From assembly GCA_031431875.1 (NCBI GenBank), contig JANPEF010000011.1, forward strand, positions 407 through 64,406: DNA of 64,000 nucleotides, given 5' to 3'. The DNA is from Candidatus Eiseniibacteriota bacterium. Lineage in GTDB: Bacteria; Eisenbacteria; RBG-16-71-46; DASYSL01. Positions 2,927 through 27,179 of the stretch are shown piece after piece. Position 1 is the stretch's first letter; every line of letters begins with the position of its first letter. The notes under the pieces were generated by a model. That model was not told where the DNA came from and ran no database searches. It saw only the letters and a list, made by a program, of their open reading frames with translations. The translations under genes and the position numbers were made by a program.

Positions 2927-4540
2927 ATGTCCTGTCCCCCGGTCCCTGCCGCCCTTCTGACCCTCGGGCTTGTTCTCGTCGCGGTCCGCGACTCCGGAGC
3001 CCAGTGCATCCTCGCCAATCCCAGCTTCGAGCTGGTCGGCTCGGCCGGCCAGGTCTTCGGGGGCTGGAGCCAGTTCGGTCCGGTGGGCTCGACGACGAAC
3101 GCGCCGCACGGCGCCAGGGCCGCCCGCATCACCGGCCCGAATACCGGCAACTGGGACGTCGCAGGCTACTGGCAGCAGCAGACCACGACGCCGGGCCGGC
3201 GCTGGGCGGCGTCGGTGCGCGGCTGGCACTCGCCCGCGAAGCCGCTGACCGGGGGGGCGAAGGCGATCCTCAACATCGAGTGGCGCAACTCGGGCGGGGG
3301 ACTGATCAGCTACGAGTCGCACACCGTTGCCGGTTCGTCGACGCCGCTCGACGTGATCCAGGACTTCTCCGTCGAGAGCGCGCCGGCGCCCGCCGGCACC
3401 GTGGCGGTGCGCATCCTGCTCGGCGCGCTTCAGGGCCCGACCGACGCGACGCCCGACGTGTTCTTCGACCAGGTGCGCTTCGAGGACCTGGGGCCGCCGC
3501 CGCTGGCCGCCGCGCAGTGGGGCGACTTTCCAGGAGGGCGCTCCGTCGCGTTCAGCGGCCGCAACTGGCGCGTCAAGGGACCCGGATTCTACGGCCCCGG
3601 ACCGAACCTGTTCTCCGACGGCACAGCCAACCTGTGGGTCGACCTCAATGACCAGATGCACCTGACGGTGAAGCAGGTCAGTAGCCAGTGGTACAGCACC
3701 GAGGCCGTGCTCGAGGAGGTCCTCGGCTACGGCGACTATATCTTCACGACGGTCGGTGACCTCGACACGCTGCATCCGAGCGTCGTCTTCGGGCTCTTCA
3801 TCTGGCAGTACGGGCCGTGCTACGACGGCGCGTACCTGTGGTGGAATCCCTACAACGAGATCGATGTCGAGTTCAGCCGCTGGGGCAACCCGGCGAGCGA
3901 CCTCGGCCAGTTCGTCGCCCAGCCGTACGACTATCCCGGGAACATCCATCGCTTCCCGGCGACGTTCAGCCCGGGCGAGCGCACCAGCCACGCGTTCCTC
4001 TGGATGCCCGATCGCGTCGAGTACCGCAGCTGGCGCGGCGGGCCGAACGACGAGTCCCCCGGGAGCCTGATCCGCGCGTGGACCTATGCGGGGCCGCACA
4101 TCCCGCGACCCGAGATCCCACGCGTGCACGTCAACCTGTGGCGGGCCGCCGGGACGCCGACGACCACGCAGGAGGTCGTCCTCGAGGCGTTCACGTTCAA
4201 GCAGCCGTGCTTCGATCCGCCGTGCATCGTCGGTGTGCCCGATGACCCGGCGGGCGACGCGGCTGTCGGCGACGTCGCGCGCGCGTGGCCGAACCCGTTC
4301 AACGCCAGCACCACGATCCGCTACGTGTTGCCTGCTCCGGGAGAGCGCGACCTCGCGATCTACGACGTCGCCGGTCGGCACGTGCGTTCACTGGCATCGG
4401 GCACGGTCGTGGCCGGCGAGCAGCAGGCGGTGTGGGACGGGCGGGACGACGCGGGGAATCGCGTCTCGCCGGGTGTCTACCTGTACCGGCTGCGCACGGA
4501 CAGCGGCGTGCAGAGCCGCCGCGTCGTCTACCTGCGCTGA
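2927..4540 (+). CDS. secreted CBM4/9-like + GH16-like (ExDxE) beta-glucanase-like protein with C-terminal FlgD-Ig-like domain
   Basis: Signal peptide. An ANPSFE motif typical of CBM4_9 N-termini. NEIDVEFSRWG resembles the GH16/XET EIDFEF catalytic strand. The C-terminus WPNPFNASTTIRYVLP...IYDVAGRHV...WDGRDDAGNRVSPGVYLYRL is a FlgD-Ig-like tail. Confidence 0.6.
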   Translation: MSCPPVPAALLTLGLVLVAVRDSGAQCILANPSFELVGSAGQVFGGWSQFGPVGSTTNAPHGARAARITGPNTGNWDVAGYWQQQTTTPGRRWAASVRGWHSPAKPLTGGAKAILNIEWRNSGGGLISYESHTVAGSSTPLDVIQDFSVESAPAPAGTVAVRILLGALQGPTDATPDVFFDQVRFEDLGPPPLAAAQWGDFPGGRSVAFSGRNWRVKGPGFYGPGPNLFSDGTANLWVDLNDQMHLTVKQVSSQWYSTEAVLEEVLGYGDYIFTTVGDLDTLHPSVVFGLFIWQYGPCYDGAYLWWNPYNEIDVEFSRWGNPASDLGQFVAQPYDYPGNIHRFPATFSPGERTSHAFLWMPDRVEYRSWRGGPNDESPGSLIRAWTYAGPHIPRPEIPRVHVNLWRAAGTPTTTQEVVLEAFTFKQPCFDPPCIVGVPDDPAGDAAVGDVARAWPNPFNASTTIRYVLPAPGERDLAIYDVAGRHVRSLASGTVVAGEQQAVWDGRDDAGNRVSPGVYLYRLRTDSGVQSRRVVYLR

Positions 4541-7500
4541 GGGTCCGGCGCAGTCACGCGCACGTCGATCCGCACGATCTCGCCGCTGCGCCCGAGCAAC
4601 GCCTGGCTCTCCTCGATCGTGAGCCGGTCGCCCGGGCGGGGCTCGGCAGCGCCGCCGCGCATGGTGACGCGAATCGTGCCGTTGCCCTCGCCCTGCTCGT
4701 AGACGACGGGCACCTGGCAGAACGTGAAGGCGAGGGACCCCGCGGGGACTGCGATCGCGTTCGCCGCACCGGCCACGTCGATGCACGAGAAGGTCGAAGC
4801 CTCGGCCAGGTACTCCCCGGCCGGGAGCATCGTCGGCGCGAAGCGCACGAGGCCGCCCTCGACCCGCACGCCGAGCTCGCCGAAGCGCGTGAGAATCTCC
4901 TCCTTCACCTGGCCCGTCATGCCCGGCTGCTGCGCGCCGGCGTGACGCGGCGTGTGTGAATACGGGTCGGTGGGGAATGCGCCGTACTCGGCGGGCGTGC
5001 GCGCGTACCCCAGCCCGCCACGGATTCGCTCGTAGGCCTCGCGGAGCGCCGCGCGGACGTCCGGTGCCGCGCCCGCGTCGTTCGCCCGCCCGACCAGCTC
5101 CTGCACGGCAAGCAGCAGCTTGGCGACCATGTGCCAGTAGATGCAGCCCAGGCCCTCGTAGCCGTACATCGTGCCCGAGCGACCGGTGAACGAGTGGTGG
5201 TGGAACACCGCTTCGAACGCGTCGAGCACCGCCGCGCGATCCCGTGCCACTGCGTCGCGCCACGGCTCCTGTGCGGCCAGCCGATCGAGCGCTGCCGCCA
5301 CCTCGCGCGCGTTCGTGAAGTCGGCATGGAAGCGGCATGCGCCCTGCGCATCTCTGGCCACGATCGATCGCTCGCCGGCGGCGACGAACGCGGCCAGCAG
5401 AGGCACGCTCCGGACGCACGCCTCGGGGATCACGTTGCGCTCGAGGAACGTGGGCAGCGCGCGCTCAGGGTAGAGCAGGAGGCTCTTCTGGTCGGCGCGG
5501 TACAGTGGGCCGGCAAACATCGTCTCGAGCAGCGTGACTGCCTCGGCCGGGTCGACGAGCCCCGAACCCAGGGCCGCGACCTGTCCCTCGAGCATCACGT
5601 CGAGACGGTGCAGGGCGGCCCCGTCGCCCGTGTCGCCCACGGCGCTCAGCGCCAGCAGGTTGTAGGCGTGATAGAGCCCGTCGGGCCGGCGGTTGGCGCG
5701 GATCGCGTGATCGATCCACTCCCGCGCCAGGCTGCACAGTGCGAGAACGTCGCCAGAGTGCAGCAGCGTCGGCGCGCCGAGCCCGTGGCGGTCGACCCTC
5801 GTCCGATAGGTCTCGAAGGCGCGGCCCAGCGCGTCCATCACCAGGCGCCGATCTCGATCATCGAGCGTCGGCACGGCGAGCAGTCCGCGGTGCGCGATGA
5901 GGATGCCGCCGATCGCACGAAACCAGACCTCGACCGCGCCCGAGACCGGGCACGATAGGTCGGCGCGCTGCGCCAGCAGATCATCGAGGACGCCGAGGTG
6001 CCGGCGGAGCTGGTACACGGTGACCATCGACAGCCCATCGCCCACGAGCGCGTTGTTCGCGTCGTTCCACTCGGGCCGCTGCGTGTTCATCCAGATGCCG
6101 CCGTCGGGCACCAGGTTCGACAGCTTGGACAGCACCGGGACGAGCAGCTTCTCGAGCAGGTTGACGCGCAGCACCGCCCCGTCGCCGTCGGTGACCAGCT
6201 TGCCGTCGCTGCCCAGCGCCGCGACACGCGCGTCGACGCGCGCCGCGACGTCGGTGGCGAAAGTGATCGTCGCGCGCGGGTCCGCGACGATCGCGGCGTA
6301 AGGCTCAAGCCGGTAGGGCACGTCGGCATAGCTGAAGATCGCGCGATCGAGCAGTGCGGCGAGCGTGCCGGGCGCGAAGCGCTCCTGCGCCTCGAGCAGC
6401 CGCGACAGGTAGACGATCTGGTGGTCGCCCCAGTAGCCGAGGCCGCTCCACGGGTGGTGCGGATCGATCACCTCCCAGTCGATGCCGTCGCGCGTGATGC
6501 GGTACGGATTGAAGCCGTCGGTGGTCGATGCGTTGACGAAGCGCGCGATCATCCCCGGCAGGAAGCCCGGGAAGCTGAGGCCGAGCGCCTCCCAGTTCTG
6601 GAAGATGTCGCGCCAGTTGCCCTCGTAGCGCAGCGCGCGGCTGCCGGTTTCGTCACGGACCTCGATGCGGAAGCGATTCCACGGCCGGCTCGGATCGCCG
6701 TGGCGGCGGCCGAAGTAGAGCGGCAGGTACTCGAGGCTCGCGCGCTCCAGGTCGGCGTCGCCGCTCGCTGCGGACCACGCAGCGAGTTCGCGGATCGTGA
6801 TCGTGGCCGGCAGCGCGCGGAGCCGCTCCTCGTGGCGCGCGGCCAGCGGCCGGTTGCGCGCGTGCAGGTAGGTTGCGAAGTCCGCCGCGGGCACGTCGTG
6901 GCCGTGATCGAAGACGCCCCCGCGCATGGTGTTGAACAGCACGTTCGCCTGGTGGTGCGCGGTCGACACGGCGTGGGCGGTGAGCTGGAGCCCGTCCGCG
7001 CTCGCGACGATGCGCCGCAGGTTCTCCATCGCGCGGTCGAGGCTCTCCTCGATGATTCGGTCGAGATCCTCGCCCGAGGCGAGGCGGGCCCGCAGCGCGC
7101 CCAGCTCGACGTGGCCGAGGCCAACGTCGGCCACGAGGTGCCAGCGCCGCTGCGTGCGCGGGGCGAGCGTGAAGGAGGCGTGCGCGAGCACGTTGCCGCG
7201 CAGCCCGGTGAGAAGCGGCGGCTCGACTCGCGGCTCGCCGCGGCGGAAGGCCGCGATCGCGTCGAGCGACAGCGCGATGCGCGGGCGCGTCAGCCCGAAA
7301 GTCCACGCGACGTTGGCACGCAGGTGCTCGGCGGCCTCCGGCCGGTCGGTGATCCGCGAGGTGAGCGAGAACAGCACGAGCCCCGTTTCCGGGTCGCGAT
7401 CGGTCTGCTTGTAGGCGTCGACGAGCGAACTCGACTGCTGGTAGAGCGCGAGCGGAGCGCCGTGCGGCAGGACGTTGCGCAGTCCGTCGAGGACGTCGAC

Positions 7501-8001
7501 GGAGACCTCGGCCGCGCCCAGGTTCGACACGACCGCGGTGCGCACCCAGCCGAACTCGTCGCCGGCCGACCAGCGGTAGCGGAATCCGAGCTGGAGCCCG
7601 TGGTGGATCTCCTCGAACACGATGCGGTTGCCGAGGACGTTCTTGTAGAGGTTGCGCTCGAGTTGCTGGTTCTCGCCGGCGGGCTCGGCGAAGGGCTGCC
7701 ACAGGACGCCCTCACCGGCGCCGTGTCGCACGCGCAGCAGCGTGATCGGGCCCGTATGGTGATGCGCATCGTGCAGGTGGTCGACGGTCTCGTACGGAAA
7801 GAGGCTGCCGTCGGGATCGACGCGTCCGGCCGCCAGTCCGCCGGCGGAGGAGAGGAACATCCACAGGTCGGTGTCGCTGGGGATGCTCATCAGGAACGGC
7901 GGCATCCGGTCGAAGCCGGCGATCCGGTAGTATGGCTCGCCATCGAGCGACGTGAAGGCACCGGTCGGCAGCGGCGGGGCCTCCGGGCGCTCCGTGCTCA
8001 T
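4528..8001 (-). CDS. large (1157 aa) putative (alpha/alpha)6-barrel glycoside hydrolase/phosphorylase (possibly GH94/GH149/GH161-like beta-glucan phosphorylase)
   Basis: The ORF track extends to 8649, but the upstream 216 codons overlap the GH17 gene. An ATG at 7999-8001 overlaps the GH17 stop (ATGA). Motifs NWRDIFQNWEALG, WNDANNALVGDG and GYWGDHQIVYL are suggestive of (alpha/alpha)6 glycosidase/phosphorylase folds. The family call is a guess. Confidence 0.5.
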   Translation of the reverse strand: MSTERPEAPPLPTGAFTSLDGEPYYRIAGFDRMPPFLMSIPSDTDLWMFLSSAGGLAAGRVDPDGSLFPYETVDHLHDAHHHTGPITLLRVRHGAGEGVLWQPFAEPAGENQQLERNLYKNVLGNRIVFEEIHHGLQLGFRYRWSAGDEFGWVRTAVVSNLGAAEVSVDVLDGLRNVLPHGAPLALYQQSSSLVDAYKQTDRDPETGLVLFSLTSRITDRPEAAEHLRANVAWTFGLTRPRIALSLDAIAAFRRGEPRVEPPLLTGLRGNVLAHASFTLAPRTQRRWHLVADVGLGHVELGALRARLASGEDLDRIIEESLDRAMENLRRIVASADGLQLTAHAVSTAHHQANVLFNTMRGGVFDHGHDVPAADFATYLHARNRPLAARHEERLRALPATITIRELAAWSAASGDADLERASLEYLPLYFGRRHGDPSRPWNRFRIEVRDETGSRALRYEGNWRDIFQNWEALGLSFPGFLPGMIARFVNASTTDGFNPYRITRDGIDWEVIDPHHPWSGLGYWGDHQIVYLSRLLEAQERFAPGTLAALLDRAIFSYADVPYRLEPYAAIVADPRATITFATDVAARVDARVAALGSDGKLVTDGDGAVLRVNLLEKLLVPVLSKLSNLVPDGGIWMNTQRPEWNDANNALVGDGLSMVTVYQLRRHLGVLDDLLAQRADLSCPVSGAVEVWFRAIGGILIAHRGLLAVPTLDDRDRRLVMDALGRAFETYRTRVDRHGLGAPTLLHSGDVLALCSLAREWIDHAIRANRRPDGLYHAYNLLALSAVGDTGDGAALHRLDVMLEGQVAALGSGLVDPAEAVTLLETMFAGPLYRADQKSLLLYPERALPTFLERNVIPEACVRSVPLLAAFVAAGERSIVARDAQGACRFHADFTNAREVAAALDRLAAQEPWRDAVARDRAAVLDAFEAVFHHHSFTGRSGTMYGYEGLGCIYWHMVAKLLLAVQELVGRANDAGAAPDVRAALREAYERIRGGLGYARTPAEYGAFPTDPYSHTPRHAGAQQPGMTGQVKEEILTRFGELGVRVEGGLVRFAPTMLPAGEYLAEASTFSCIDVAGAANAIAVPAGSLAFTFCQVPVVYEQGEGNGTIRVTMRGGAAEPRPGDRLTIEESQALLGRSGEIVRIDVRVTAPDPQRR

Positions 8002-9155
8002 GGCCGCGGCGCTCCGCCCAGCGCCGGTTTCGGCGTCCGGTCGGCGCGGTACAGGCCCCAGTGCTTCTCGACCTCGGCGGGATCGCCGCCGCCCTTCCAG
8101 TTCTCGTCGAAGGCCTCGAACACGAACGTCGGGATGCGCTCGCGCTCGACCCACGCGTTGAGCTCGTCGAAGAAGACCTTCTGCTCCGCCTCGCCGAGCC
8201 GGCCCTTCATCAACTTGCCCTGGTCGCCCAGGTCGTTCCGTTGCGTGGCCCAGCCAACCTCGCCGAGGATCACGGGCCGTTCCGGCTGCGCCGTGCGGAT
8301 CGAGGCGAGGGTCCGCTCCGTCCACCCCACCGCGTCCTCGAGCTGGATCCCGTTCCACAGCGGGTGCATGTGGGTCGTCACGAAATCCACCTCGCGCGCC
8401 ACGTCGCCGCTCTCGGGCTTGTTCCAGAAGTTGAAGTCGTCGGCCGTCGTCACGGGCAGGCTGGTGCGCGCGCGGACCTGGCGCAGGGCGGCGATCAGCG
8501 TGGCCGGCGGGCTGCGATGCCCGGACCAGGACACCTGTGTCTCGTTGCCGACGCAGACGGCGAGGACGATCGCCGGGTACTGCCGGGCCAGGCGCACCGC
8601 GGCGTCGATCTCGCGCTGGTTCGCCATCGAGTCCACGGGATCGATCCACAGGCCCAGCATCACCTTCATCGGGCGGCGCTCCGCATCGATGATCACCATC
8701 AGGCTCTCGGCAGGGCCCTGCGCCTGGTACACGCGGAGCAGACTCCAGTGCTTCGCCATCAGGTCGAGATCCTCGCGCAGATCGCGGCGCGATGGAGAGG
8801 CGCCGCCCGGGCGCTGCCCGTCGCGGTGGGGACCGTAGGCGACCGCGTTGCCGATCCAGCGTTCGCCGTCGAAGGGGCGGAATGGACGCACCACGAACGG
8901 CTCCTCGCGGGCGAAGGCCGTCGCGCCCGCAGCCACGGAGGCGGGCACGACTGCGGGCACGGCTGTAGGCACGGAGGCGGAGGTGGCCGGCTTCGGTGCG
9001 CCGGCGCAGCCAGCGACGACGCCGAGCACGAGGACCGCACCGAGTGCCGCTCTCAGGTCGCGCGCGGGGCGCACGAGAAATGCGCCCCGGGAAACCCGGG
9101 GCGCATCCTCGATCTTCGTGGCGCAGGATGCCCTGCGGCAGGCGGCCATGCTCAC
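7998..9155 (-). CDS. glycoside hydrolase family 17-like beta-1,3-glucanase/transglycosylase, secreted
   Basis: Signal/lipoprotein-like N-terminus. AVCVGNE (acid/base GNE) and ILGEVGWAT (GH17 nucleophile motif [LIV]-x-E-x-G-W). HWGLYRADRTPK at the C-terminus as in GH17 enzymes. Confidence 0.65.
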   Translation of the reverse strand: MSMAACRRASCATKIEDAPRVSRGAFLVRPARDLRAALGAVLVLGVVAGCAGAPKPATSASVPTAVPAVVPASVAAGATAFAREEPFVVRPFRPFDGERWIGNAVAYGPHRDGQRPGGASPSRRDLREDLDLMAKHWSLLRVYQAQGPAESLMVIIDAERRPMKVMLGLWIDPVDSMANQREIDAAVRLARQYPAIVLAVCVGNETQVSWSGHRSPPATLIAALRQVRARTSLPVTTADDFNFWNKPESGDVAREVDFVTTHMHPLWNGIQLEDAVGWTERTLASIRTAQPERPVILGEVGWATQRNDLGDQGKLMKGRLGEAEQKVFFDELNAWVERERIPTFVFEAFDENWKGGGDPAEVEKHWGLYRADRTPKPALGGAPRP

Positions 9156-9156
9156 C

Positions 9157-10569: not shown

Positions 10570-10683
10570 CCGATCCTCCTCGGCCGACCCGTGGTCGCGC
10601 CGCAATCCATGTGCAAGTGGATGTCTGAGATTCTTCGGAATTGTGGGCGGGACCTGGGAGCTTCGCCCGGGACAGACGGAGGC

Positions 10684-10729
10684 TTGACAGGACCGAGGGC
10701 AGAATACACTATGTTCGGCAGGCGAACAA
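10684..10729 (+). promoter_or_regulatory. sigma70-like promoter (TTGACA ...TACACT) with an adjacent 6-bp inverted repeat TGTTCG-gcagg-CGAACA (candidate operator) upstream of the oppF-bgl operon
   Basis: A perfect -35 hexamer at 10684-10689 and a -10-like hexamer ~15-17 nt downstream. The palindrome at 10713-10729 sits between the promoter and the GTG start at 10754. Confidence 0.4.
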
Positions 10730-10753
10730 AGTCTCTTTCGGGGAGGGAAATCG

Positions 10754-11761: not shown

Positions 11762-11772
11762 TCGGTCCGCTC

Positions 11773-16337: not shown

Positions 16338-16352
16338 TCGGCCGGGTGGCGG

Positions 16353-17318
16353 CTACTTCGCCACATGGCACGCCGCGACGTGGCCCGGAGCGAACTCGCG
16401 CAACTCCGGCGTCTCCACCCGGCAGCGCTCGATCGCGAGCGGGCAACGTGGGTGGAACCGGCACCCCGCCGGCGGGTTCTCGAGGCTCGGCGGCGCGCCC
16501 GGAATGCCGACCCGGTCGTGTCCCGTGTCGTGGATTCCCGGGAACGAGCGCAGCAGGCCCTGCGTGTACGGGTGCCGTGCCGAGTTGCGCAACCCGGCGA
16601 CCGGCCCCAATTCGACCAGCCGCGCGCTGTAGAACACCGCCACCCGATCCGAGAACTGCAGCATGCGCGCCAGGTCGTGCGTGATGAACAACACGGAGAA
16701 GCCGAGCCGCTGGTGGAGCGCGCGGATCTGGACCAGGATCTCCTGCTCGACGATCACGTCGAGCGCGGTGGTCGGCTCGTCGAGAATCAGCAGCGCGGGC
16801 TCGAGCGCGAGCGCCAGCGCGATGCACACGCGCTGCCGCATGCCTCCCGACAGCTGGTGCGGGTAGCTGTCCAGTCGGTCGGGCGGCATGCCGACCATCG
16901 CGAAGAGCTCGCCGGCGCGGGCACGCGCCGCGCCGCGCGACGCAAAGTCGTGCGCCAGCATCGTGTCGATGATCTGCTCCCCCACGGTGAGCACGGGATT
17001 CAGGGCGTCCATGGCGCTCTGGAACACGATCGCCACGCGCTTCCAGCGCAACTCGCGGAGTTCCGCCTCATCGGCCGCGAGGAGGTCGCGCCCCTCGAGC
17101 AGGACCTGGCCGCGCGAGATCACCGCGGGGGATGGCAGGATGCGAAGGATCGCCTGCGCCAGCGTCGACTTGCCGCTGCCCGATTCGCCGGCGATGCCCA
17201 CGATCTCGCCCCGTCCCACGTCGAACGAGACCCCATCGACCGCCCGCACGAGGCCGCGATCGGTGACGTAGTCGACGCAGAGGTCGCCAACGGAGAGCAG
17301 GGGCTCAGTCACGGTCAC
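16353..17318 (-). CDS. oppD: Opp/Dpp-family ABC transporter ATP-binding protein (OppD/DppD-like)
   Basis: GESGSGKSTLAQAIL Walker A, an LSGGMRQRVCIALAL signature, and a C-terminal CRFHPRCP motif. Confidence 0.85.
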   Translation of the reverse strand: MTVTEPLLSVGDLCVDYVTDRGLVRAVDGVSFDVGRGEIVGIAGESGSGKSTLAQAILRILPSPAVISRGQVLLEGRDLLAADEAELRELRWKRVAIVFQSAMDALNPVLTVGEQIIDTMLAHDFASRGAARARAGELFAMVGMPPDRLDSYPHQLSGGMRQRVCIALALALEPALLILDEPTTALDVIVEQEILVQIRALHQRLGFSVLFITHDLARMLQFSDRVAVFYSARLVELGPVAGLRNSARHPYTQGLLRSFPGIHDTGHDRVGIPGAPPSLENPPAGCRFHPRCPLAIERCRVETPELREFAPGHVAACHVAK

Positions 17319-18246
17319 GCACCACGGGCGTCGAACGCGTCGGGGTCCGACCCCGGGCCGCCAGGTGGGCGCGCCATGCCCGTTCCATCTGCAGCCGCGG
17401 ATTCGTGATCTCGTCGAAGCCGGAGTTGAGCAGGGTCAGGCCGAAGCCCACGAGAGCGACGCAGAGCCCGGTGGGCACGAACGTCCACCACGCCCCGGTC
17501 AGGAGCGCGGAGTCGTTCTGCGACCAGTAGAGGTTCGTCCCCCAGGTGAACGCCGAGACGTCGCCGAGGCCGAGGAACTCGAGGCCCACCTGGGCGCCGA
17601 TGGCGTACACGGTGCTGCCGATCACCTGCGCCACGAGCAGCGACATCATGTTGGGCAGGATCTCGCGCGTGATGATGTTGAACGGCGACTCGCCGGCGAC
17701 GACCGCCGCCGCCACGAAGTCGCGCCGGCGCAGGGCCAGAGCCTGCGAGCGCAGCACGCGCGCGTTCCAGGCCCACCCCGTGACCACGAGCACGAACCCC
17801 AGCGTGAGCGGCCCCGATGGCAGGTAGGCGGCGATGACGATGGCCAGCGGGAGCCCCGGCAGGACCAGGAACACGTTGAAGATCACCGAGAGGAGCGCGT
17901 CGACACGGCCGCCGAAGTAGCCAGCCGTGACGCCCACGAGCGCCCCGATGAGCACCACCGCAAGGCCGACCGCGAAGCCGATGGCGAGCGAGACGCGGGT
18001 GCCGACGACAAGTTGGGCGAGCACGTCCTGGCCCTGCCCGTTCGTGCCGAGCCAGTGCGCCCCCGAGGGTGATTGCAGCGGCACGCCGACCAGCGCATCC
18101 GGGGCGCCGACGAGCCACGGGCCGACGATCCCGACGAGGACGAACCCGGCGATCAGCGTCGCGCCGATCGACGCCTTGCGATCGCGCCGGATCGCATGCC
18201 ACCAGGCGGTGATGCCTGTGGCGCGGGTTGCGCGCGGGCCGCTCAT
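17305..18246 (-). CDS. oppC: Opp/Dpp-family ABC permease (OppC/DppC-like)
   Basis: The track ORF extends to 19179 but overlaps oppB. An ATG at 18244-18246 overlaps the oppB stop (ATGA). Six predicted transmembrane segments and an EAA-like loop (ALALRRRDFVAAAVVAGESP). Confidence 0.85.
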   Translation of the reverse strand: MSGPRATRATGITAWWHAIRRDRKASIGATLIAGFVLVGIVGPWLVGAPDALVGVPLQSPSGAHWLGTNGQGQDVLAQLVVGTRVSLAIGFAVGLAVVLIGALVGVTAGYFGGRVDALLSVIFNVFLVLPGLPLAIVIAAYLPSGPLTLGFVLVVTGWAWNARVLRSQALALRRRDFVAAAVVAGESPFNIITREILPNMMSLLVAQVIGSTVYAIGAQVGLEFLGLGDVSAFTWGTNLYWSQNDSALLTGAWWTFVPTGLCVALVGFGLTLLNSGFDEITNPRLQMERAWRAHLAARGRTPTRSTPVVRDRD

Positions 18247-19223
18247 GACGACTCCCTGGTACGCGGATCGAGCCACAGGAGCGCCAGGTCGACCAGCCAG
18301 TTCGCGCCCAGCACGGCGAGCGTGATGACGAGGAAGATGCCTTGCATGAGCGGATAGTCCTGGTTGCGTACCGCCTGCACCAGCAGGTAGCCCTGGCCAG
18401 GATAGGAGAACACGATCTCGGTCAGCAGCGATCCGCCGAGGACGAACCCGAGCGCCATGCCGAAGCCGGTGACGCTGGGCAGGAGGGCGTTGCGCGCGGC
18501 GTAGCGCAGCATGACCTGCGAGGGCGGGAGGCCCTTGGCGCGGGCCAGGTTGACGTAGTCCGAGCCGAGCACCGCGATCATCGTGTTGCGCATCGACAGC
18601 AGCCAGCCGCCGAGCGTTGCCAGGACCACCGTGCCGATGGGCAGCGCGGCGTGGCGAACCACGTCGGCGAGAAAGGTGAAGGTGAAGCCGGGCGTGAGAT
18701 CGTCGCCATAGGCGTGCCCCAGCGGGAACCAGCGCAGCGTGAAGCCCAGGACGTAGAGGGCGAGCATGGCGAGCCAGAAGTAGGGGAACGCGCCGATGAA
18801 CACCAGCGTCGAAGGCAGCCAGGTGTCGAGCCAGCCGCGGCGCTGCCAGGCGGCGACGGCGCCGAGCAGCGTGCCGATCGCGAAGCTCACGATCAGCGCC
18901 GTGCCGGCGAGGAACACCGTCCACACGAGGCCGGTGCCGATGACCTGCGACACCGGTGACGGAAAGTAGGCGATCGAGATGCCGAAGTCGCCGCGCAGCA
19001 CGTGGCCGAGGTAGGTGACGTACTGGACGAGGAGCGGCGCGTCGGTGAGCCCGAAGGTTTCGCGCAGGGCCAGCATGGCCTCGGGCGCGAGGCGGCCGCG
19101 AAAGCGGGCGAACAGCGCCGTCGCGGGATCGCCCGGCATGAGGCGCGGAAGGAAGAAGTTGAGCGTCAGCGCCGCCCACGCCGCGAACACGTAGAATCCG
19201 AGTCGCTGGAGGATGTAGGGCAA
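18243..19223 (-). CDS. oppB: Opp/Dpp-family ABC permease (OppB/DppB-like)
   Basis: MPYILQRLGFYVFAAWAALTLNFFLPRLMPGDP N-terminus typical of DppB/OppB. Polytopic membrane protein. Confidence 0.85.
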   Translation of the reverse strand: MPYILQRLGFYVFAAWAALTLNFFLPRLMPGDPATALFARFRGRLAPEAMLALRETFGLTDAPLLVQYVTYLGHVLRGDFGISIAYFPSPVSQVIGTGLVWTVFLAGTALIVSFAIGTLLGAVAAWQRRGWLDTWLPSTLVFIGAFPYFWLAMLALYVLGFTLRWFPLGHAYGDDLTPGFTFTFLADVVRHAALPIGTVVLATLGGWLLSMRNTMIAVLGSDYVNLARAKGLPPSQVMLRYAARNALLPSVTGFGMALGFVLGGSLLTEIVFSYPGQGYLLVQAVRNQDYPLMQGIFLVITLAVLGANWLVDLALLWLDPRTRESS

Positions 19224-19232
19224 ACTCGCCTC

Positions 19233-20906
19233 CTAGCGTGGCGTGAGGGTGGTGAGGACGAGCAAGAGCTCGCCCCGGTCAAACTTGTTCGGCGACGGAT
19301 CCGCGTAGGGATGGTCCGCCGCGGGGAAGCCATCGAATCGACTCGTGTTGTACTCCGCCCACGACGGGTTTGGATACAGCGGAATTGCAGGCGCCTCGCT
19401 GACGAAGACCCGCTGCAACTCGACGCACAGCGCCCGCTGCTTCGTTGGATCGGCTTCGCGCTCGAACGCGGCGAGCCCGCGGTCGGCCGCGGGGCTGCCG
19501 TAGCGGTGCCAGTTGCCCATCGCCGCGACGCCGACGGGGCTCACCGTCGCCGAGGCCATGAGCCAGCGGTAGAACGAATAGGGCGTCGGACCCTCGAACG
19601 ACCAGCCGAGCGTGAGGTCGAAGTTCCCCTCCTGGACGCGCTGGAACCAGGCGCTGAAGTCGTAGGTGCGCACCGTCGCGTCGACGCCGAGGGACTGCAG
19701 GTCGCGGGCGATCACCTGCGCGGCGCGAACCCAGTCGGACCAGCCGGCGACCGACAGCACCTCGTAGCGCAGGGGCTTGCCGTCGGGGAGACGGCGCATC
19801 CCGTCCGCGCCGCGCACCAGGCCCGCCGCGTCGAGCAGGCGCCCGGCGGCGGCCGGGTCGTGGCGAACCCAGTCGCCGGCCGCGACGGCCGCGGAGTCGC
19901 GCCACGCGGCATAGGCGTCGCTGAGGCCCGTGGCGTCGGCGGGTCGCGAGTAATGGTGCAGCGCCACGTCGACCATCAACGTCCGGTCGATCGCCATGCT
20001 GAACGCCTTGCGCACGCGCACGTCGTCGAACGGCGCGCGCCTCGTGTTGGCGTACAGGAAGATGCTGCTGCCGGTGAGCGGGAACCAGTAGCGATGATGC
20101 TCCGGGTTCCGACCGACGAAGACACGGTCGACGGCGGGAATGAAGTTCCCGGCCCAGTCGGCCTCGCCGAAGACGAGGGCCAGGTTCGCGCGATCGTTCG
20201 ACGGGTAGGCGGGGCAGCGGATGGCGTCGAAGTGCGGCTCGCCGGGGCGCCAGTAGCGGGGATTCCGGCCGAGTTCGTAGACCTGGTTCTGGAAGACGCG
20301 GACCTCGGTGAAGGGTCCGGTGGCGACCGGGTTCTCGTTCGCGAAGGCCACCGGATCCGCCACCGTGCTCCACACGTGGCGGGGCACGATCTGCTGGGCG
20401 ACGATCTCGTCGAAGCCGGGGATGAACACCCGCTGGAAGCGGAAGGCGACGGTGCGCTCGTCCACTGCATCGACCGCCGAGAGGAAGCCCCAGAGGCCGC
20501 GCCGATCGAGGGCGGGATGGCGCTTGAGCAGGTCGAAGGTGAACGCCACGTCGCGGGCGTCGAACGGCCGGCCGTCCGACCACAGCACGCTGTCACGCGT
20601 GGTCAGTTGCAACACGAGGTTTCCCTCGGTCCAGGCGTGGCCGACGGCGAGCCACGGCACGTACTCGGAGCGCTGGCTGTTGAACACGTACAGCGGTTCG
20701 TAGATCCCGGCCAGCGTGGGCCAGCGGGCCGACGTCGCGGTGGTCAGCGGATTGAAGTTGCGGATCCACGAGGCCTGCTGTTCCTGCGAGACGACGAGCA
20801 CCCCGGCCGGGGCCCGCGGTACGTCGCGGGCGCAGGCGACCGCCCCGAGCGCGGCGAGCGCGAACGCGAGGCGCGCCCACGGGGGCGGCGGCGCTGCAGC
20901 GATCAC
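19233..20906 (-). CDS. ABC transporter substrate-binding protein, family 5 (OppA/DppA-like). The genomic context suggests a beta-gluco-oligosaccharide ligand.
   Basis: Signal peptide. ~557 aa with SBP_bac_5-like composition. It heads the SBP-oppB-oppC-oppD operon, 10 bp upstream of oppB. Confidence 0.75.
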   Translation of the reverse strand: MIAAAPPPPWARLAFALAALGAVACARDVPRAPAGVLVVSQEQQASWIRNFNPLTTATSARWPTLAGIYEPLYVFNSQRSEYVPWLAVGHAWTEGNLVLQLTTRDSVLWSDGRPFDARDVAFTFDLLKRHPALDRRGLWGFLSAVDAVDERTVAFRFQRVFIPGFDEIVAQQIVPRHVWSTVADPVAFANENPVATGPFTEVRVFQNQVYELGRNPRYWRPGEPHFDAIRCPAYPSNDRANLALVFGEADWAGNFIPAVDRVFVGRNPEHHRYWFPLTGSSIFLYANTRRAPFDDVRVRKAFSMAIDRTLMVDVALHHYSRPADATGLSDAYAAWRDSAAVAAGDWVRHDPAAAGRLLDAAGLVRGADGMRRLPDGKPLRYEVLSVAGWSDWVRAAQVIARDLQSLGVDATVRTYDFSAWFQRVQEGNFDLTLGWSFEGPTPYSFYRWLMASATVSPVGVAAMGNWHRYGSPAADRGLAAFEREADPTKQRALCVELQRVFVSEAPAIPLYPNPSWAEYNTSRFDGFPAADHPYADPSPNKFDRGELLLVLTTLTPR

Positions 20907-21730
20907 GACCCGGACCGGTACACCCGGACCCAGTCGACGAGCATCGTCTGGGGGAACACCGTGCTCTCATCGGGCGGGCCCACGAAGTTGCCGCCGACTG
21001 CGACGTTCAGGATCATGAAGAAGGGATGGTCGAACACCCAACGCCCGCCGGCGGGGAGGTCGGCCGGCGTGAGCACGCGGTAGACGACGTCGTCGACGAA
21101 CCAGGTGATCCGGCTCTCGCTCCACTCGACCGCGAAGACGTGGAAGTCGTCGTTGAAGTTGGCGCCCGGCAGCGTGTACCGCGTCCCCACCGAGTTGCCG
21201 CCCGAGTAGCCGGGTCCGTGGATGGTGCCGAGGATGACGTTCGGCTCCTGGCCGCGGTACTCCATGATGTCGATCTCGCCGCAGGTGGGCCAGCCAACCG
21301 TGCCGAAGTCGTTGCCGAGGGCCCAGAACGCGGGCCAGATGCCCTGTCCGATCGGCAGCTTGATCCGTGCCTCGAACCGCCCGCGCGCCTGCTCGAAGAG
21401 CCCGCGCGTGTTGATCCGCGCCGACGTGTACTCGGACTCGAGGTAGTTCTCCTCGCGGGCGATGATCGCCAGGTTTCCCGCACCGTCGAGCGACGCGTTC
21501 TGCGGGCGCGCCGTGTCGTACTCGAGTTGCTGGTTACCCCAGTCGGTGCCGATGTCGAAGCGCCAGCGCGCCGGGTCGGGGGACTGGCCCGCAGCTCCTT
21601 CGAACTCGTCCTGCCAGGCGAGGGTCCACTCCAGCGGCACCGGGTCGGTGGCGCCGCTGCGGCAGCCGGTGAGCGCGAGGAGGAGGGCGAACAGGAGCCA
21701 GGGTCGAGCGTCGCCCCTGCGTGCGGTCAT
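20903..21730 (-). CDS. GH16 laminarinase-type endo-beta-1,3-glucanase, lipoprotein
   Basis: Lipobox LLLALTGC. A GEIDIMEY catalytic motif (GH16 ExDxxE with beta-bulge). WPAFWALG and ILNVAVGG motifs conserved in GH16 laminarinases. Confidence 0.85.
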   Translation of the reverse strand: MTARRGDARPWLLFALLLALTGCRSGATDPVPLEWTLAWQDEFEGAAGQSPDPARWRFDIGTDWGNQQLEYDTARPQNASLDGAGNLAIIAREENYLESEYTSARINTRGLFEQARGRFEARIKLPIGQGIWPAFWALGNDFGTVGWPTCGEIDIMEYRGQEPNVILGTIHGPGYSGGNSVGTRYTLPGANFNDDFHVFAVEWSESRITWFVDDVVYRVLTPADLPAGGRWVFDHPFFMILNVAVGGNFVGPPDESTVFPQTMLVDWVRVYRSGS

Positions 21731-22980
21731 GCGATCTCCGCGGTCGGTGTGGCGAGATTGAAGTGACGGGAGTCGGCGAGTGCCGATTGGAGGACGAGCG
21801 TGGCCGCTCCGATGGCCCCGGCGCGCGGGCCCAGCTCGCTGACCTGAATCGCCGAGGCCGAGAATGCGCTGAGCAACGTGCGGCGACTGACCGTCTCGCG
21901 CAGGGGCTCGAGCAGGATCTCGCCGAGCCGCGCGATGCCGCCGCCGAGGATGACGCGGGCGGGATTGAGGAGGTTGAGCACGTCGGCGACGGCGATGCCG
22001 AGGTTCTCCGCCGCTTCGACCACGACCTGCAGGGCGATCGGGTCGCCGGCAAGTGCCGCGTCCTCGATCGCGGTGATCGTGGGCTCGGTGTCGGCAAGCA
22101 TGCTGTCCGGATCACGCGCGAGCAACTCGCGGGCGCGGGCAACCAGCGCCGGGGCACCGATCAGTGTGGCGAGGCAGCCGCGCAGGCCGCAGATGCACAG
22201 CGCGCCGTGCGGGTCGATGGCAACGTGACCGATCTCGCCGGCGGTGCCTCTGGCGCCGCGGTAGATGTTGCCCGCGATGATGTGGCCCGAGCCGATGCCG
22301 GTCGCCAGCTTGATGTAGGCGAAGTCGTCGATGCCGCGGCCCGCTCCCCACCACTGCTCGGCGAGCGCCCCGAGGTTCGCGTCGTTGTCGACCATCAGCG
22401 GTGCGCCGAAGCGCTGTGAGAGGACCTGGAGTCCGCCGCGTCCGGACCACGCGGGGAGCACGAGCTCGGACAGGTGGTCGGGGTCCGTCGGGTCCACGGG
22501 GCTGGGCACGGCGACGCCGATGCCGACCAGGCGCTGCGACTCGTCAGCTCCCGCGGCCAGCGCGTCCTGGCAAAGCTCGATCATCAGCGCGCGGGTTCCC
22601 CTGGGATCCGTGCGCACGGCATGGTGGCGGTGCTCCCACGCGAGCACGCGCCCCCGCAGGTCCGTGAGCGCGACGGCAATGTGCGTCGCGCCCATCTCGA
22701 CGCCCAGGATGACGCACGCACCGTCCTGGAAGCGCAGCACGATCGGCCGGCGGCCGCCGCGCGAGGGACCGGTGCCGACTTCGGCGACCAGCCGGGTGAG
22801 CAGCAGGCCGTCGACGATCTCGGAAACCGTCGACCGCGAGAGCTCGGCCCGGCGGGCGATCTCGGCGCGCGAGATCTCGCCCTCCCGCCAGATGCGGCGC
22901 AGCACCGAGTCGGAGAGGCGCCGCCGCCGCGCGGCACCGGAGTGACGCGCTCGCTTTCCCAGGAAGCCGGACTTCATCAT
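21727..22980 (-). CDS. ROK-family transcriptional regulator (NagC/XylR-like) with an N-terminal wHTH
   Basis: Start re-assigned to the ATG at 22978-22980, overlapping the upstream stop (ATGA). HTH RRIWREGEISRAEIARRAELSRSTVSEIVDGL. ROK glycine-rich motifs and a CxCGxxGC zinc motif (CICGLRGCLA). Confidence 0.8.
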   Translation of the reverse strand: MMKSGFLGKRARHSGAARRRRLSDSVLRRIWREGEISRAEIARRAELSRSTVSEIVDGLLLTRLVAEVGTGPSRGGRRPIVLRFQDGACVILGVEMGATHIAVALTDLRGRVLAWEHRHHAVRTDPRGTRALMIELCQDALAAGADESQRLVGIGVAVPSPVDPTDPDHLSELVLPAWSGRGGLQVLSQRFGAPLMVDNDANLGALAEQWWGAGRGIDDFAYIKLATGIGSGHIIAGNIYRGARGTAGEIGHVAIDPHGALCICGLRGCLATLIGAPALVARARELLARDPDSMLADTEPTITAIEDAALAGDPIALQVVVEAAENLGIAVADVLNLLNPARVILGGGIARLGEILLEPLRETVSRRTLLSAFSASAIQVSELGPRAGAIGAATLVLQSALADSRHFNLATPTAEIA

Positions 22981-24416
22981 CGGTGGAAGTAGACGTTGTC
23001 GACGTACACGGTGCTCGCGTCGCTGGAGAGGATGAGCTGCGCCACGTGGCCACGCGTCGTCAGGCCGGTGAAGCTCTCCAGCGGGATGTCGAGGTCGGAC
23101 CAGACCCCGGTCCGGAACGCCGGGGTGGTCCCGCCGTTGAAGCTCAACTCCTGTTCCCGGTCGTCGCCGCCGCCGAAGACGCCGTTGGCCCCGAAATCGA
23201 CCAGCTTGATCCGGCAGATCGCCCCGCCCGAGGCCCACACGTCGAGATGGACGTGGGTCATCGCGGTGGCATCGATGGGCAGCGACGTGAACTCGATACC
23301 CGCGTACGTGAGGTTCGAATAGGCCTTCGTGTCGTTGCCGGCGATCTGCACATCCGACACGTCCGCCAGATCCCACGTTGCCGACCAGGTGTCGACGGGC
23401 CGGTTCACGTACGAGTTGCTGAACAGCGAGATCACGTCGGCCGCCGGCCGCGTTGGAACCGGCGCCGCGTCGGGGGGCAGCGCCGAAGCGTTCACAGTCA
23501 GCACACCGACCGCGGGGATGGTCCCGAGGCGGGCCGTGATTTCGGTCCGGCCGGCCCTGTAGACCCGGACGATGCCCTGGTCGACCTGCGCCACGGAGTC
23601 GACCGACGTGGCGTAGTCGAACCAGGCCGGCATGTGCTCGACGATCTGGTTCGCCCCGCCGACGTCGAACGTCGTGCGCGTCCCTTGCACCGGGAAGGAC
23701 GCCCCGGCGAAGGCGCCGACGAGACGCGACTGCAGCCCGGGCCGAGGGTTCGAGATGGTGTCGACGGTCTCGAACATGATGTCATCAAACCACAACGTGT
23801 AGCCCGAGCCCGCCTCGGGACCCTCGGCGAAGAAGAACATGCCTCGCTCGGCGCGGAGCACTCCGGTCAGGGGGATCGGGATCGTGTACTTGGTCCAGGC
23901 CGTCGTGAGGGGAATCGCGGCCCACCGCACCTCGTACTTCGAGGTCCCCGTGTTGTCGTTGCCGAGTCCGGCCACGTCGAGCGTCGCGGTCCGGCTGGCC
24001 CTGGCCCAGAAGGTCAGCGCGTTGTAGCCGGAGGGATCGCGGGCCTGCACGGTCGTGAACGCGCCGCCGGCGTAGCCGCCGGCCGGATCGCTGGGCCCCG
24101 GGACGCTCACCTTGAGGGAGGAGGTGCCCAGGTGCGAGACGGTGCCGTCGACCGTCACCGCCGTCACCTTCGATCCGGCGAACGCCTGGTAGCCGACTCC
24201 GTCGCCATACGCGTCGAGAAAGACGATCGGATCGGCATTTCCTGGAGCGAGTCCAAGGTCCGCGGTGTCGTGACCGCAGCCGGCCATCGCGACGGTGAGC
24301 GCCGCAGCCGCGGCGAGCAGGAGGAACGTGTGTCTCGGCGTCACGGCATGCCTCCGGCTGGGGCGAGGTTCGGCGCCCGACACCCCCGAGAACCGCGTGA
24401 AATGGGCGAAATCCAT
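22977..24416 (-). CDS. surface lipoprotein with beta-sandwich/CBM-like domains; candidate glycan-binding protein of the locus
   Basis: Lipobox LTVAMAGCG. No catalytic motifs. Located between the ROK regulator and the NHL protein. The exact start is uncertain (ATG at 24416, or an internal GTG/ATG near 24350). Confidence 0.5.
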   Translation of the reverse strand: MDFAHFTRFSGVSGAEPRPSRRHAVTPRHTFLLLAAAAALTVAMAGCGHDTADLGLAPGNADPIVFLDAYGDGVGYQAFAGSKVTAVTVDGTVSHLGTSSLKVSVPGPSDPAGGYAGGAFTTVQARDPSGYNALTFWARASRTATLDVAGLGNDNTGTSKYEVRWAAIPLTTAWTKYTIPIPLTGVLRAERGMFFFAEGPEAGSGYTLWFDDIMFETVDTISNPRPGLQSRLVGAFAGASFPVQGTRTTFDVGGANQIVEHMPAWFDYATSVDSVAQVDQGIVRVYRAGRTEITARLGTIPAVGVLTVNASALPPDAAPVPTRPAADVISLFSNSYVNRPVDTWSATWDLADVSDVQIAGNDTKAYSNLTYAGIEFTSLPIDATAMTHVHLDVWASGGAICRIKLVDFGANGVFGGGDDREQELSFNGGTTPAFRTGVWSDLDIPLESFTGLTTRGHVAQLILSSDASTVYVDNVYFHR

Positions 24417-27162: not shown

Positions 27163-27179
27163 ACCCCGAGGGGGAACGA

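Follow-up and report, generated by a model that had tools for sequence, protein, structure and literature searches.

How do beta-glucan fragments cross the outer membrane of a bacterium in which no SusC/SusD pair or TonB-dependent receptor is found, either in 64 kb of sequence around its glucan-degrading genes or in the annotated loci of its relatives? The question is raised by positions 2927-24439 of a 64,000-nucleotide stretch of DNA from a Candidatus Eisenbacteria bacterium (this whole stretch is called the window below), a host that is presumably diderm because proteins carry sorting domains of the type IX secretion system (T9SS). We consider it likely that this part of the chromosome is a ROK-regulated locus for the utilisation of beta-1,3-glucan of the laminarin type, working through a proposed flow of six steps. 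That it is a beta-1,3-glucan catabolic locus with an Opp importer of the sugar type is held with high confidence. The reading is supported by family assignments, by the order of the genes, whose start and stop codons overlap, by synteny statistics, by the conserved operator and by predicted folds.

The initial annotation, made for positions 2927-24416, had described the locus as built around an Opp-type ATP-binding cassette (ABC) importer, which it regarded as the only transporter. Its gene inventory was largely right: the glycoside hydrolases (GH) of families GH16, GH17 and GH1, a putative phosphorylase (here assigned to GH149), the ROK regulator, a lipoprotein and the Opp-type ABC system were all identified. 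The importer is probably not the sole transport component, given that one of the presumed enzymes, g8, carries a predicted outer-membrane beta-barrel (coordinates of all features are collected in Table 1).

A glucanase-like domain joined to a predicted outer-membrane barrel

In g8 the initial annotation recognised a clan GH-A TIM-barrel enzyme. The TIM barrel stands, and is predicted to be GH158/157-like; what the description left out is the predicted outer-membrane barrel of about 600 residues fused to it. Family searches detect little of this architecture. Pfam yields a weak GH2_C match within the first 300 residues and nothing else; at E values up to 10, no Pfam family covers the barrel. 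The protein is widespread, with more than 5,500 homologues at E ≤ 1e-5, the best 120 of which are 62 to 87% identical along the whole length. Relatives occur in at least 596 species-representative genomes of FCB-group phyla, annotated as Eisenbacteria, Gemmatimonadota, Krumholzibacteriota, Zixibacteria, GN15, Ignavibacteria and Fibrobacteraceae.

An AlphaFold2 model of g8, computed on a 38-sequence alignment, reached a mean predicted local distance difference test score (pLDDT) of 72.8 and a predicted template modelling score (pTM) of 0.53. In it, residues ~44-410 form a TIM barrel and 421-451 two helices, after which some 28 long antiparallel strands occupy residues 455-1059. When the N-terminal domain was compared with the PDB by Foldseek, the top match was the endo-laminarinase BuGH158 (6PAL, E 4.7e-13), and further matches were GH158 structures (9P26/9ORO, GH158(Pro)) and a complex of GH157 with laminaribiose (9G5G). 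The catalytic residues appear to be in place: in the alignment N187-E188 and E288 lie opposite the GNE and TEFG motifs of GH158(Pro), they correspond to N136/E137/E220 of BuGH158 (the clan GH-A acid/base after beta4 and the nucleophile after beta7), and they are invariant in the 38 homologues.

The C-terminal half matched proteins of another kind. Its best structural matches (residues ~455-1059, E 2e-8 to 5e-7, probability 1.0) are TonB-dependent transporters and large specific porins, with BtuB, PfeA, OprC and FecA at about 2e-8 and the 18-strand porins Occ/OpdK/MOMP at about 2e-7. About 20 of the 28 predicted strands have the dyad-alternating hydrophobicity of membrane beta-strands. Searched alone, the barrel retrieves 459 representative clusters, mostly with the same N-terminal GH-A domain. 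It also occurs in stand-alone proteins of ~590 to 615 residues without any Pfam domain (P0280, P0281 and P0286), and one divergent homologue, P0389 (1218 residues), combines a CBM_4_9 carbohydrate-binding module (CBM) with the GH-A TIM domain and the barrel.

Two familiar types of barrel were considered and rejected. A TonB-dependent transporter would have a 22-strand barrel preceded by a plug domain, which is absent from g8: there is no Plug or TonB_dep_Rec match in Pfam and no TonB box region, and the N-terminus is the TIM barrel, an enzyme too large for the barrel interior. In a type Va autotransporter the barrel has 12 strands and some 250 to 300 residues, as against about 600 here, and PF03797 does not match. 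Because there is neither a plug domain nor an autotransporter-type barrel, and because the fold matches are as described, we read g8, with moderate confidence, as a GH158/157-like glucanase fused to a predicted outer-membrane beta-barrel. That the barrel is an uptake channel is a more tentative proposal, which may well prove wrong; both the channel function and the side of the membrane on which the enzyme domain would lie are things that we infer.

Several points weigh against this reading of g8. Model confidence is moderate, and the closure, strand number, lumen and orientation of the barrel are putative. The matches to TonB-dependent transporters, besides the missing plug, have low TM-scores (~0.2 to 0.35). 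At the sequence level, phmmer relates the N-terminal domain to a GH2 protein (4.8e-7) more closely than to 9ORO (5.9e-5), identity to GH158 in the Foldseek alignments is 14 to 17%, and the substrate assigned to the domain follows from fold rank and context. Finally, the evidence is wholly computational, from sequences and predicted folds.

The question also arises as to whether g8 could be a glucanase held at the outer membrane by a barrel that conducts no sugar, serving as an anchor or for autotransporter-like display, with entry through general porins or TonB-dependent transporters encoded elsewhere. The helices at 421-451 do recall the linker of autotransporters, the extra N-terminal CBM_4_9 module of P0389 suggests an extracellular, polymer-facing N-terminal half, and the channel property is itself a prediction. 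However, a barrel of roughly 22 to 28 strands far exceeds the known anchors (12 strands and ~280 residues in autotransporters, whose PF03797 domain is, again, not matched by g8), and no other outer-membrane transporter is found in any annotated locus. Moreover, stand-alone homologues of ~590 residues exist, which argues that the barrel has a function of its own. We consider the anchor rather unlikely.

In a limited literature search we found no description of a glycosidase fused to an outer-membrane barrel, which is not proof of novelty; as far as we found, the architecture of g8 is undescribed, and the one transporter-CAZyme fusion encountered is an inner-membrane protein of Formosa. This protein, FbGH17B (FORMB_24740), belongs to a laminarin polysaccharide utilisation locus and consists of a major facilitator superfamily (MFS) transporter fused to a GH17 exo-glucanase, the rationale being a coupling of hydrolysis with uptake (PMC6246565). 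Like FbGH17B, g8 would join a beta-1,3-glucan hydrolase to a membrane module in a single polypeptide, within a laminarin locus. Unlike it, g8 has its GH158-like GH-A domain at the N-terminus and an outer-membrane-type beta-barrel at the C-terminus, in place of an inner-membrane 12-helix MFS followed by GH17.

Conserved core and alternative back ends

Gene content was counted in those 43 related loci in which the g8 homologue is flanked by at least 8 kb on either side. A GH16 gene is present in 42 of them, a g15-like lipoprotein in 40 and a ROK regulator in 38. The inner-membrane transporter is an Opp-type ABC system in 18 loci and an MFS protein in 22; no locus has both, and three have neither. 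GH149 accompanies the ABC system in 17 of 18 cases, and GH3 is found in 16 of the 22 MFS loci. Since the two transporters are mutually exclusive while the front-end genes are constant, the ABC system is a swappable back end and not the core. The conserved core is g8 with GH16, g15 and ROK; of its two interchangeable back ends, one consists of the ABC importer, GH149 and GH1. The idea of a locus built around the importer is therefore abandoned.

The annotated relatives illustrate this range: one from Eisenbacteria has the same gene order as the window, one from Gemmatimonadota has g8, two GH3 genes, an MFS gene, GH16, ROK and a CBM/Big_2 protein, and one from Krumholzibacteriota has no inner-membrane transporter in the locus. 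The closest genome, a Candidatus Eisenbacteria metagenome-assembled genome (L001), encodes a g8 protein that is 97% identical and is collinear with window positions 6020-24356 at 95% nucleotide identity. A side observation concerns two other loci, in which a conserved gene of ~212 residues without Pfam match, absent from the window, lies between the g5-like gene and the next operon (6840-7484 in L081 and 5994-6632 in L086).

Because no TonB-dependent receptor or SusD is encoded in the window or in the annotated relatives, a route through the outer membrane would otherwise be missing. It is possible, though we would not put it higher, that the g8 family provides the way in through the outer membrane for a glycan-utilisation system independent of Sus, acting together with GH16 and lipoproteins resembling surface glycan-binding proteins (SGBPs), under ROK and a conserved operator. 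The front end so defined would be common to genomes of Eisenbacteria, Gemmatimonadota, Krumholzibacteriota, Zixibacteria, GN15, Ignavibacteria and the Fibrobacteres type, and its alternative back ends would be Opp-ABC with GH149 and GH1, or MFS with GH3. If true, g8 would define a new class of enzyme-channel fusion, an outer-membrane counterpart of the SusC/SusD pair and surface glycosidases of Bacteroidota.

Beta-1,3-glucans, laminarin among them, are large reservoirs of carbon, and their import through the outer membrane is poorly understood outside Bacteroidota and Proteobacteria. What the comparison adds is an uncharacterised family of 1050-residue proteins, 60 to 70% identical across phyla and spread over the species genomes counted above, in the company of GH16, a glycan-binding lipoprotein and ROK. 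The family is a testable candidate for non-Sus glycan uptake in Gemmatimonadota, Eisenbacteria and their relatives.

From glucan to glucose: enzymes, importer and regulator

The substrate first proposed, beta-1,3-glucan, is favoured by three families or domains that are beta-1,3-specific, namely GH149, GH17 and the GH158/157-like domain of g8; GH16 and GH1 are also present. The putative phosphorylase of 1157 residues (g3) is confirmed as GH149: it aligns with Pro_7066 (6HQ6) over its full length (phmmer E 1.5e-300, residues 16-1153 against 43-1173) and scores 1437.6 bits on the NCBIfam equivalog NF058639, the cutoff of which is 1150. The GH17-like enzyme g4 has the expected GNE and GEVGW motifs, matches 6FCG (GH17, E 3.9e-21) and 4WTP (E 1.6e-15) among PDB sequences, and reaches 33.4 bits on PF00332 (cutoff 28.2). 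Equally, the laminarinase-type lipoprotein g13 is a member of GH16 (PF00722 at 82.2 bits, cutoff 22), its EIDIME sequence being the ExDxxE catalytic motif; its best NCBIfam match is a model for endo-1,3-1,4-beta-glycanase, far under the cutoff. The GH1 beta-glucosidase was correctly recognised as well. As neither GH149 nor GH1 has a signal peptide, the proposed step of cytoplasmic phosphorolysis or hydrolysis fits.

Two further proteins, g2 and g5, are secreted and carry T9SS sorting domains (TIGR04183 at 36.1 and 30.1 bits, cutoff 23; g2 also matches FlgD_ig). For g2, described as a secreted protein with a CBM and a GH16-like domain, secretion and the NEIDVEF sequence hold. The motif (ExDxE; E311/D313/E315) is invariant in 90 of 91 homologues, and we take it to be of the lichenase/XTH type. 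The GH16 label is less secure. It is suggested by this motif and by an hhalign comparison with the GH16 family (P 0.0016, probability 16%, 168 columns), and it is opposed by the lack of a significant GH match in Pfam (E up to 10) or in a PDB profile search; we propose it as a hypothesis, with clan GH-B as the candidate. As for the two CBM4/9-like modules, which belong to g5, they clearly match each other (35% identity, E 7e-22), but the CBM4/9 label is sub-threshold: no Pfam CBM matches them at E up to 10, and the N-terminal module of g2, homologous to them (E 4e-8), has a weak CBM_4_9 match (E 0.029). PDB sequence searches with g2, g5 and g15 gave FlgD-Ig or chance matches only. A g2 homologue adjoins GH149 in 23 of the 43 full loci. 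Elsewhere in the window, and positionally unrelated to the locus, a 726-residue GSDH (glucose/sorbosone dehydrogenase-like) protein with a FlgD_ig/T9SS-type C-terminal domain (50234-52414, plus strand) is probably another T9SS cargo.

The surface lipoprotein of the initial annotation is g15, whose predicted fold is indeed SGBP-like. Its AlphaFold2 model (pLDDT 89) has three domains, a beta-sandwich, an immunoglobulin-like (Ig) domain and a second beta-sandwich, and Foldseek retrieved BtSGBP-B from a Bacteroides beta-glucan locus (7KWB, E 8.9e-8) as well as CBM30, CBM11, CBM4-2 and CBM8. The predicted architecture makes g15 a candidate surface glycan-binding protein. The GTG at 24344 is taken as its start because an identical protein of 455 residues, P0121, is on record. 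Most homologues (P0122-P0240) are of ~810 residues and contain three tandem copies of the C-terminal beta-sandwich module of ~150 residues, of which g15 and a few other homologues of 455 residues have a single copy; in a Gemmatimonadota locus (L082) the equivalent position is taken by a CBM11/Big_2 protein of 1326 residues.

These surface components invite comparison with the Bacteroides 1,3GUL (SusC/SusD, SGBP-B, GH16, GH158 and GH3; PMC7157763). Both would have a GH16 lipoprotein at the surface, an SGBP of several domains and an endo-laminarinase of the GH158 type, g15 resembling BtSGBP-B in fold and the N-terminal domain of g8 resembling BuGH158. In contrast, the SusC/SusD pair is missing here, the GH158-like domain is followed by helices and a beta-barrel where BuGH158 has an Ig domain, and an ABC importer followed by a phosphorylase would replace periplasmic GH3 and monosaccharide uptake.

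With g12, g11, g10, g9 and g6 the locus encodes a complete Opp/Dpp-type importer: a family-5 substrate-binding protein (SBP), two permeases and two ATPases with oligo_HPY tails. The second, OppF-like ATPase, g6, was missing from the earlier gene list; in all 18 ABC-type loci it accompanies the other four ABC genes. The proposal that the importer was recruited for sugar agrees with the ranking of PDB sequences against g12: chitooligosaccharide-binding proteins of Vibrio come first (1e-85 to 1e-80), then the Thermotoga mannoside-binding proteins (1e-55 and 2e-44) and the cellobiose/laminaribiose-binding protein (2O7I/4JSD, 3e-46), as against 1e-23 for NikA and about 1e-12 for DppA and OppA.

The binding site was compared in an alignment of g12 and 13 relatives with VhCBP and with DppA and OppA of Escherichia coli (from MG1655). 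Four residues of VhCBP (Asn204, Trp363, Asp365 and Trp513) are fully conserved in the sugar subcluster, and Arg436/Phe437 recognise N-acetyl groups (PMC8449061). The first three correspond to N237, W389 and D391 of g12, invariant in the 14 family members. The two residues specific for N-acetylglucosamine (GlcNAc), R436/F437, are replaced throughout the family by A/S462 and M463, and those that bind the peptide carboxylate (R355 of DppA; R413, H371 and K307 of OppA) are not conserved, g12 having at these positions K377 (K/T/S/R/H in the family), a gap, Y381 and L316. The pocket comparison thus goes mostly, not wholly, the way of a sugar binder. The peptide-amine Asp position (D408 of DppA, D419 of OppA) is held by an invariant Glu438, acidic though not Asp, where VhCBP has His, in a low-identity alignment; Trp513 of VhCBP could not be aligned with g12, the invariant Phe542 being a candidate; and the nearest solved relatives bind chitooligosaccharides. 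All three points count against a beta-1,3-glucan ligand. A chitin reading was rejected, as the N-acetyl-recognising residues are lost and no chitin enzymes occur in the locus, and so was a peptide reading, on operon structure, synteny and the missing carboxylate binders. Our reading is that g12 would be a sugar binder that is not specific for chitin, with beta-1,3-gluco-oligosaccharides as the ligand predicted from the context.

The combination of GH149 with an Opp-type importer is less unusual than first thought. Type I GH149 clusters of Proteobacteria associate GH149 with a peptide/Opp-type ABC cassette and a LacI/AraC regulator; the authors drew the parallel with laminarin use in Thermotoga, and noted that such clusters are without an extracellular laminarinase and an outer-membrane transporter (Kuhaudomlarp et al. 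2018, PMC5827456). The present locus shares with these clusters GH149 and a five-gene ABC cassette (COG0747 SBP, two permeases, two ATPases; here g3 with g12, g11, g10, g9 and g6), and the same proposed role, the uptake and phosphorolysis of beta-1,3-gluco-oligosaccharides. It differs in having ROK, GH16, GH17, GH1, T9SS cargo, an SGBP-like lipoprotein and the GH-barrel fusion, and in belonging to Eisenbacteria. It is an extended version in another phylum, and the importer with GH149, taken alone, represents a published type of cluster now seen in a candidate phylum. A locus with ROK, GH16 and Opp-ABC is known in Thermotoga, where the binding protein of the Opp-type transporter, TM0031, is like g12 a family-5 SBP of subcluster C-IV (2O7I/4JSD match g12 at ~3e-46). 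GH149, T9SS cargo and a GH-barrel fusion are not known from the Thermotoga system.

We propose the following flow, in which all protein localisations are predictions. At the surface, glucan would be bound by g15, a CBM-Ig-CBM protein similar to a Bacteroides SGBP, and by the CBM-like modules of the T9SS-exported g2 and g5, and it would be cut by the GH16 lipoprotein g13, probably also by the GH16-like domain of g2. Oligosaccharides would then cross the outer membrane through, or at, g8; as a catalytically intact GH158/157-like domain of the retaining beta-1,3-glucanase type and a large beta-barrel would form one polypeptide, cleavage and passage could be physically coupled. In the periplasm, the GH17 lipoprotein g4 may trim or rearrange the oligosaccharides, which g12 would hand to the OppBCDF-type importer. 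In the cytoplasm, phosphorolysis by GH149 would give glucose-1-phosphate, and GH1 would hydrolyse the rest to glucose. The regulator g14 would repress three operons (g15 to g9, g6 to g8 and g5 to g3) through two promoter-overlapping palindromes of 23 bp, from which sugar would release it.

Three other accounts of the locus were weighed. The substrate might be another beta-glucan, such as mixed-linkage beta-1,3/1,4-glucan, cellodextrins or beta-1,6-glucan. The GH16 and GH1 families do not distinguish beta-1,3 from mixed-linkage glucans, a point against our reading, and together with CBM11, CBM30 and CBM4-like folds they all occur in mixed-linkage-glucan and cellulose systems; the sub-cutoff NCBIfam match of g13 and the presumed lichenase/XTH-type motif of g2 lean the same way. 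The equivalog-level assignment of GH149 to 1,3-beta-glucan phosphorylase, the beta-1,3 specificity of the GH17 structures matched, and the top folds for g8 (laminarin-specific GH158 and the GH157-laminaribiose complex) make such a substrate improbable. Still less probable is a locus that makes or remodels a beta-1,3-glucan of its own, with GH149 in the synthetic direction, GH17 as transglycosylase and g8 as an export porin with a trimming hydrolase. GH149 is reversible in vitro (PMC5827456). The second-best GH17 structure match, 4WTP, is a glucanosyltransferase. The layout of g8 also recalls the exporters BcsC, PgaA and PelB, in which a periplasmic domain precedes a C-terminal porin. However, the locus contains no glycosyltransferase or synthase, and it has, or its relatives have, what catabolism would call for: a binding-protein-dependent ABC importer or MFS, cytoplasmic GH1/GH3, a sugar-responsive ROK-type regulator and CBM-rich surface proteins typical of foraging.

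Hardly credible, in turn, is a genuine peptide, nickel or chitooligosaccharide importer merely sitting among CAZyme genes, even if family-5 SBPs with OppBCDF components are annotated as peptide/nickel systems by default, the nearest solved structures bind chitooligosaccharides, and Glu438 occupies the position of Asp408 of DppA. The start and stop codons of g13, g12, g11, g10 and g9 overlap or abut, so these genes form one operon with GH16 and ROK; the five ABC genes accompany GH149 in 17 of 18 loci and are replaced elsewhere by an MFS of the sugar type; the residues for GlcNAc (Arg436/Phe437) and for the peptide carboxylate are not conserved; and the locus contains neither GH18/GH20 nor peptidase genes.

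The regulator itself, g14, is of the ROK family, as first proposed. Its probable operator, judging from sequence, is a palindrome of 23 bp that matches the window twice, compared with 0.01 matches expected by chance. Operator 1 overlaps a promoter-like element, TTGACA-17-CACTAT, at 10684-10712 (read by eye, and under the threshold of the scanner), and operator 2 abuts the -10 hexamer of a minus-strand promoter-like site, TTGACA-17-CATACT; repressor operators are arranged in this way. Within 1.49 Mb from related loci, 52 copies of the 10-base core TGTTC-N7-GAACA are found; they are spread across phyla and over 44 of 84 loci, and they lie just upstream of the gene heading the g8-containing operon and upstream of g15. 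Flanking bases outside the search motif are conserved too, giving the consensus CACT(T/A)TGTTCG-N5-CGAACAAAGT, and second sites are found at the same relative place in five loci (L001, L016, L023, L065 and L079). Binding of these palindromes by g14, and regulation by it, is what we infer from this pattern. The segment 10712-10728 was also scored as an intrinsic-terminator-like hairpin (stem and T-rich tail, 10712-10737) and could in principle act in RNA too; the terminator reading was rejected, the site being upstream of genes on both sides and the motif of two half-sites being conserved in 44 loci.

In Thermotoga, too, ROK repressors use palindromes of 23 bp, and the laminarin/beta-glucoside regulator BglR is one of them (PMC3553997). 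The regulon of BglR (TM0032) in T. maritima resembles the present case in that a ROK repressor is combined with palindromic operators of ~23 bp on a beta-glucan operon, but the operator sequences are unrelated (AATTTCTTTCTGAGGAAGATAGA against CTTTGTTC-N7-GAACAAAG). As a regulon marker, the operator described here could help to locate more members of the system in genome sequences.

Gene map and surroundings of the locus

The G+C content of the window is about 70%, because of which spurious frames fill a mechanical list of open reading frames (ORFs). Genes were called from third-position GC (GC3) and frame plots, with starts chosen by frame transition, ribosome-binding site and start/stop overlap, and the products were compared with Pfam, NCBIfam and PDB sequences. 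For OppC, the ORF 17315-18202 proved to be in the wrong frame (an Arg/Pro/Ala-rich translation without Pfam match), and the frame plot led to 17305-18246. The locus region has 15 genes in four transcription units: g2 alone (2927-4540, plus strand); g5, g4 and g3 (minus strand, 10569 to 4528); g6, g7 and g8 (plus strand, 10754 to 16337); and g15, g14, g13, g12, g11, g10 and g9 (minus strand, 24344 to 16353). Neighbours within units mostly overlap by 4 nt or abut, as read from the coordinates, which argues for co-transcription.

Table 1. Genes and probable operators of the locus, in window coordinates
Feature	Position	Strand	Description	Family evidence
g2	2927..4540	+	Secreted protein, 537 aa: signal peptide, N-terminal CBM-like module (~165 aa), hypothetical GH16-like core, T9SS type A C-terminal sorting domain	
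g3	4528..8001	-	Cytoplasmic GH149 beta-1,3-(oligo)glucan phosphorylase, 1157 aa, without signal peptide	
g4	7998..9155	-	GH17 beta-1,3-glucanase/transglycosylase with lipoprotein signal (VVAGC)	
g5	9157..10569	-	Secreted protein, 470 aa: signal peptide, two homologous CBM-like modules (~165 aa), T9SS type A C-terminal domain	
Operator 1	10709..10731	.	23-bp palindrome CTATGTTC-N7-GAACAAAG, one mismatch; divergent g5/g6 intergenic region, ends 23 nt upstream of g6 start	
g6	10754..11761	+	OppF-type ABC ATPase	Pfam ABC_tran E 1.3e-33, oligo_HPY 9e-14
g7	11773..13158	+	Cytoplasmic GH1 beta-glucosidase	PF00232 E 3.5e-157, 524 bits, full length
g8	13155..16337	+	Secreted protein, 1060 aa: signal peptide, clan GH-A TIM barrel ~44-410, helices 421-451, predicted outer-membrane beta-barrel 455-1059	
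g9	16353..17318	-	OppD-type ABC ATPase	ABC_tran E 5.8e-31, oligo_HPY E 7.9e-19
g10	17305..18246	-	OppC-type permease	Frame plot and translation; NCBIfam Opp4C E 1.2e-53
g11	18243..19223	-	OppB-type permease	BPD_transp_1 E 1.2e-37
g12	19233..20906	-	Family-5 SBP (SBP_bac_5), oligosaccharide-binding subcluster C-IV; predicted ligand beta-1,3-gluco-oligosaccharides	
g13	20903..21730	-	GH16 endo-beta-glucanase lipoprotein; lipobox LTGC; catalytic EIDIME	
g14	21727..22980	-	ROK-family transcription regulator, N-terminal winged helix	ROK E 1.3e-58; MarR-type helix-turn-helix
g15	22977..24344	-	Lipoprotein, 455 aa, start GTG 24344, lipobox MAGC; candidate surface glycan-binding protein	
Operator 2	24417..24439	.	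Perfect 23-bp palindrome CTTTGTTC-N7-GAACAAAG, upstream of g15-g9 operon	

On the right-hand side, the sequence of L001 leaves the window at 24356 and resumes at 30441, which makes 24357-30440 a strain-specific segment of 6.1 kb; it looks like an insertion or deletion beside operator 2. The segment contains an NHL propeller (24672-25640), a PIG-L deacetylase/methyltransferase fusion (25714-27162), an SDR protein (27368-28186), an AMP-binding enzyme (28186-29532) and a 290-residue protein without family match. The NHL propeller, which the initial annotation had counted among the locus members, lies outside the range given for them and in this segment absent from L001, and it is removed from the set.

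On the left-hand side, g1 (442-2691, minus strand) encodes a secreted protein of 749 residues with no Pfam, NCBIfam or PADLOC match, the C-terminal third of which is very rich in Gly, Tyr, Pro and Arg (GYYRPPG-type repeats and a GGGRGGGGRR tail). It was not found adjoining the locus in any of 80 related loci.

The remainder of the window is ordinary chromosome, with arginine biosynthesis and ArgR, kinases, two-component systems, ribosomal protein S1, RNase D and peptidases. A protein of 1028 residues at 34804-37890 combines Ser/Thr kinase, AAA and TPR parts. It is followed by a region of lower GC (37900-42400; 0.65 against 0.70-0.73) with two ORFs without family match (37992-38825 and 38829-39566), an NDH-2-like oxidoreductase and an AAA_16 ATPase (41129-42349); PADLOC, run on the neighbouring genes without assignment, gave generic kinase-domain matches only. 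The arginine biosynthesis cluster (42338-48896, minus strand) comprises OTCase, GNAT, a 451-residue protein without assignment, acetylornithine aminotransferase, amino-acid kinase and semialdehyde dehydrogenase, with the ArgR repressor gene at its upstream end, and several of the ORFs listed within it have long spurious N-terminal extensions.

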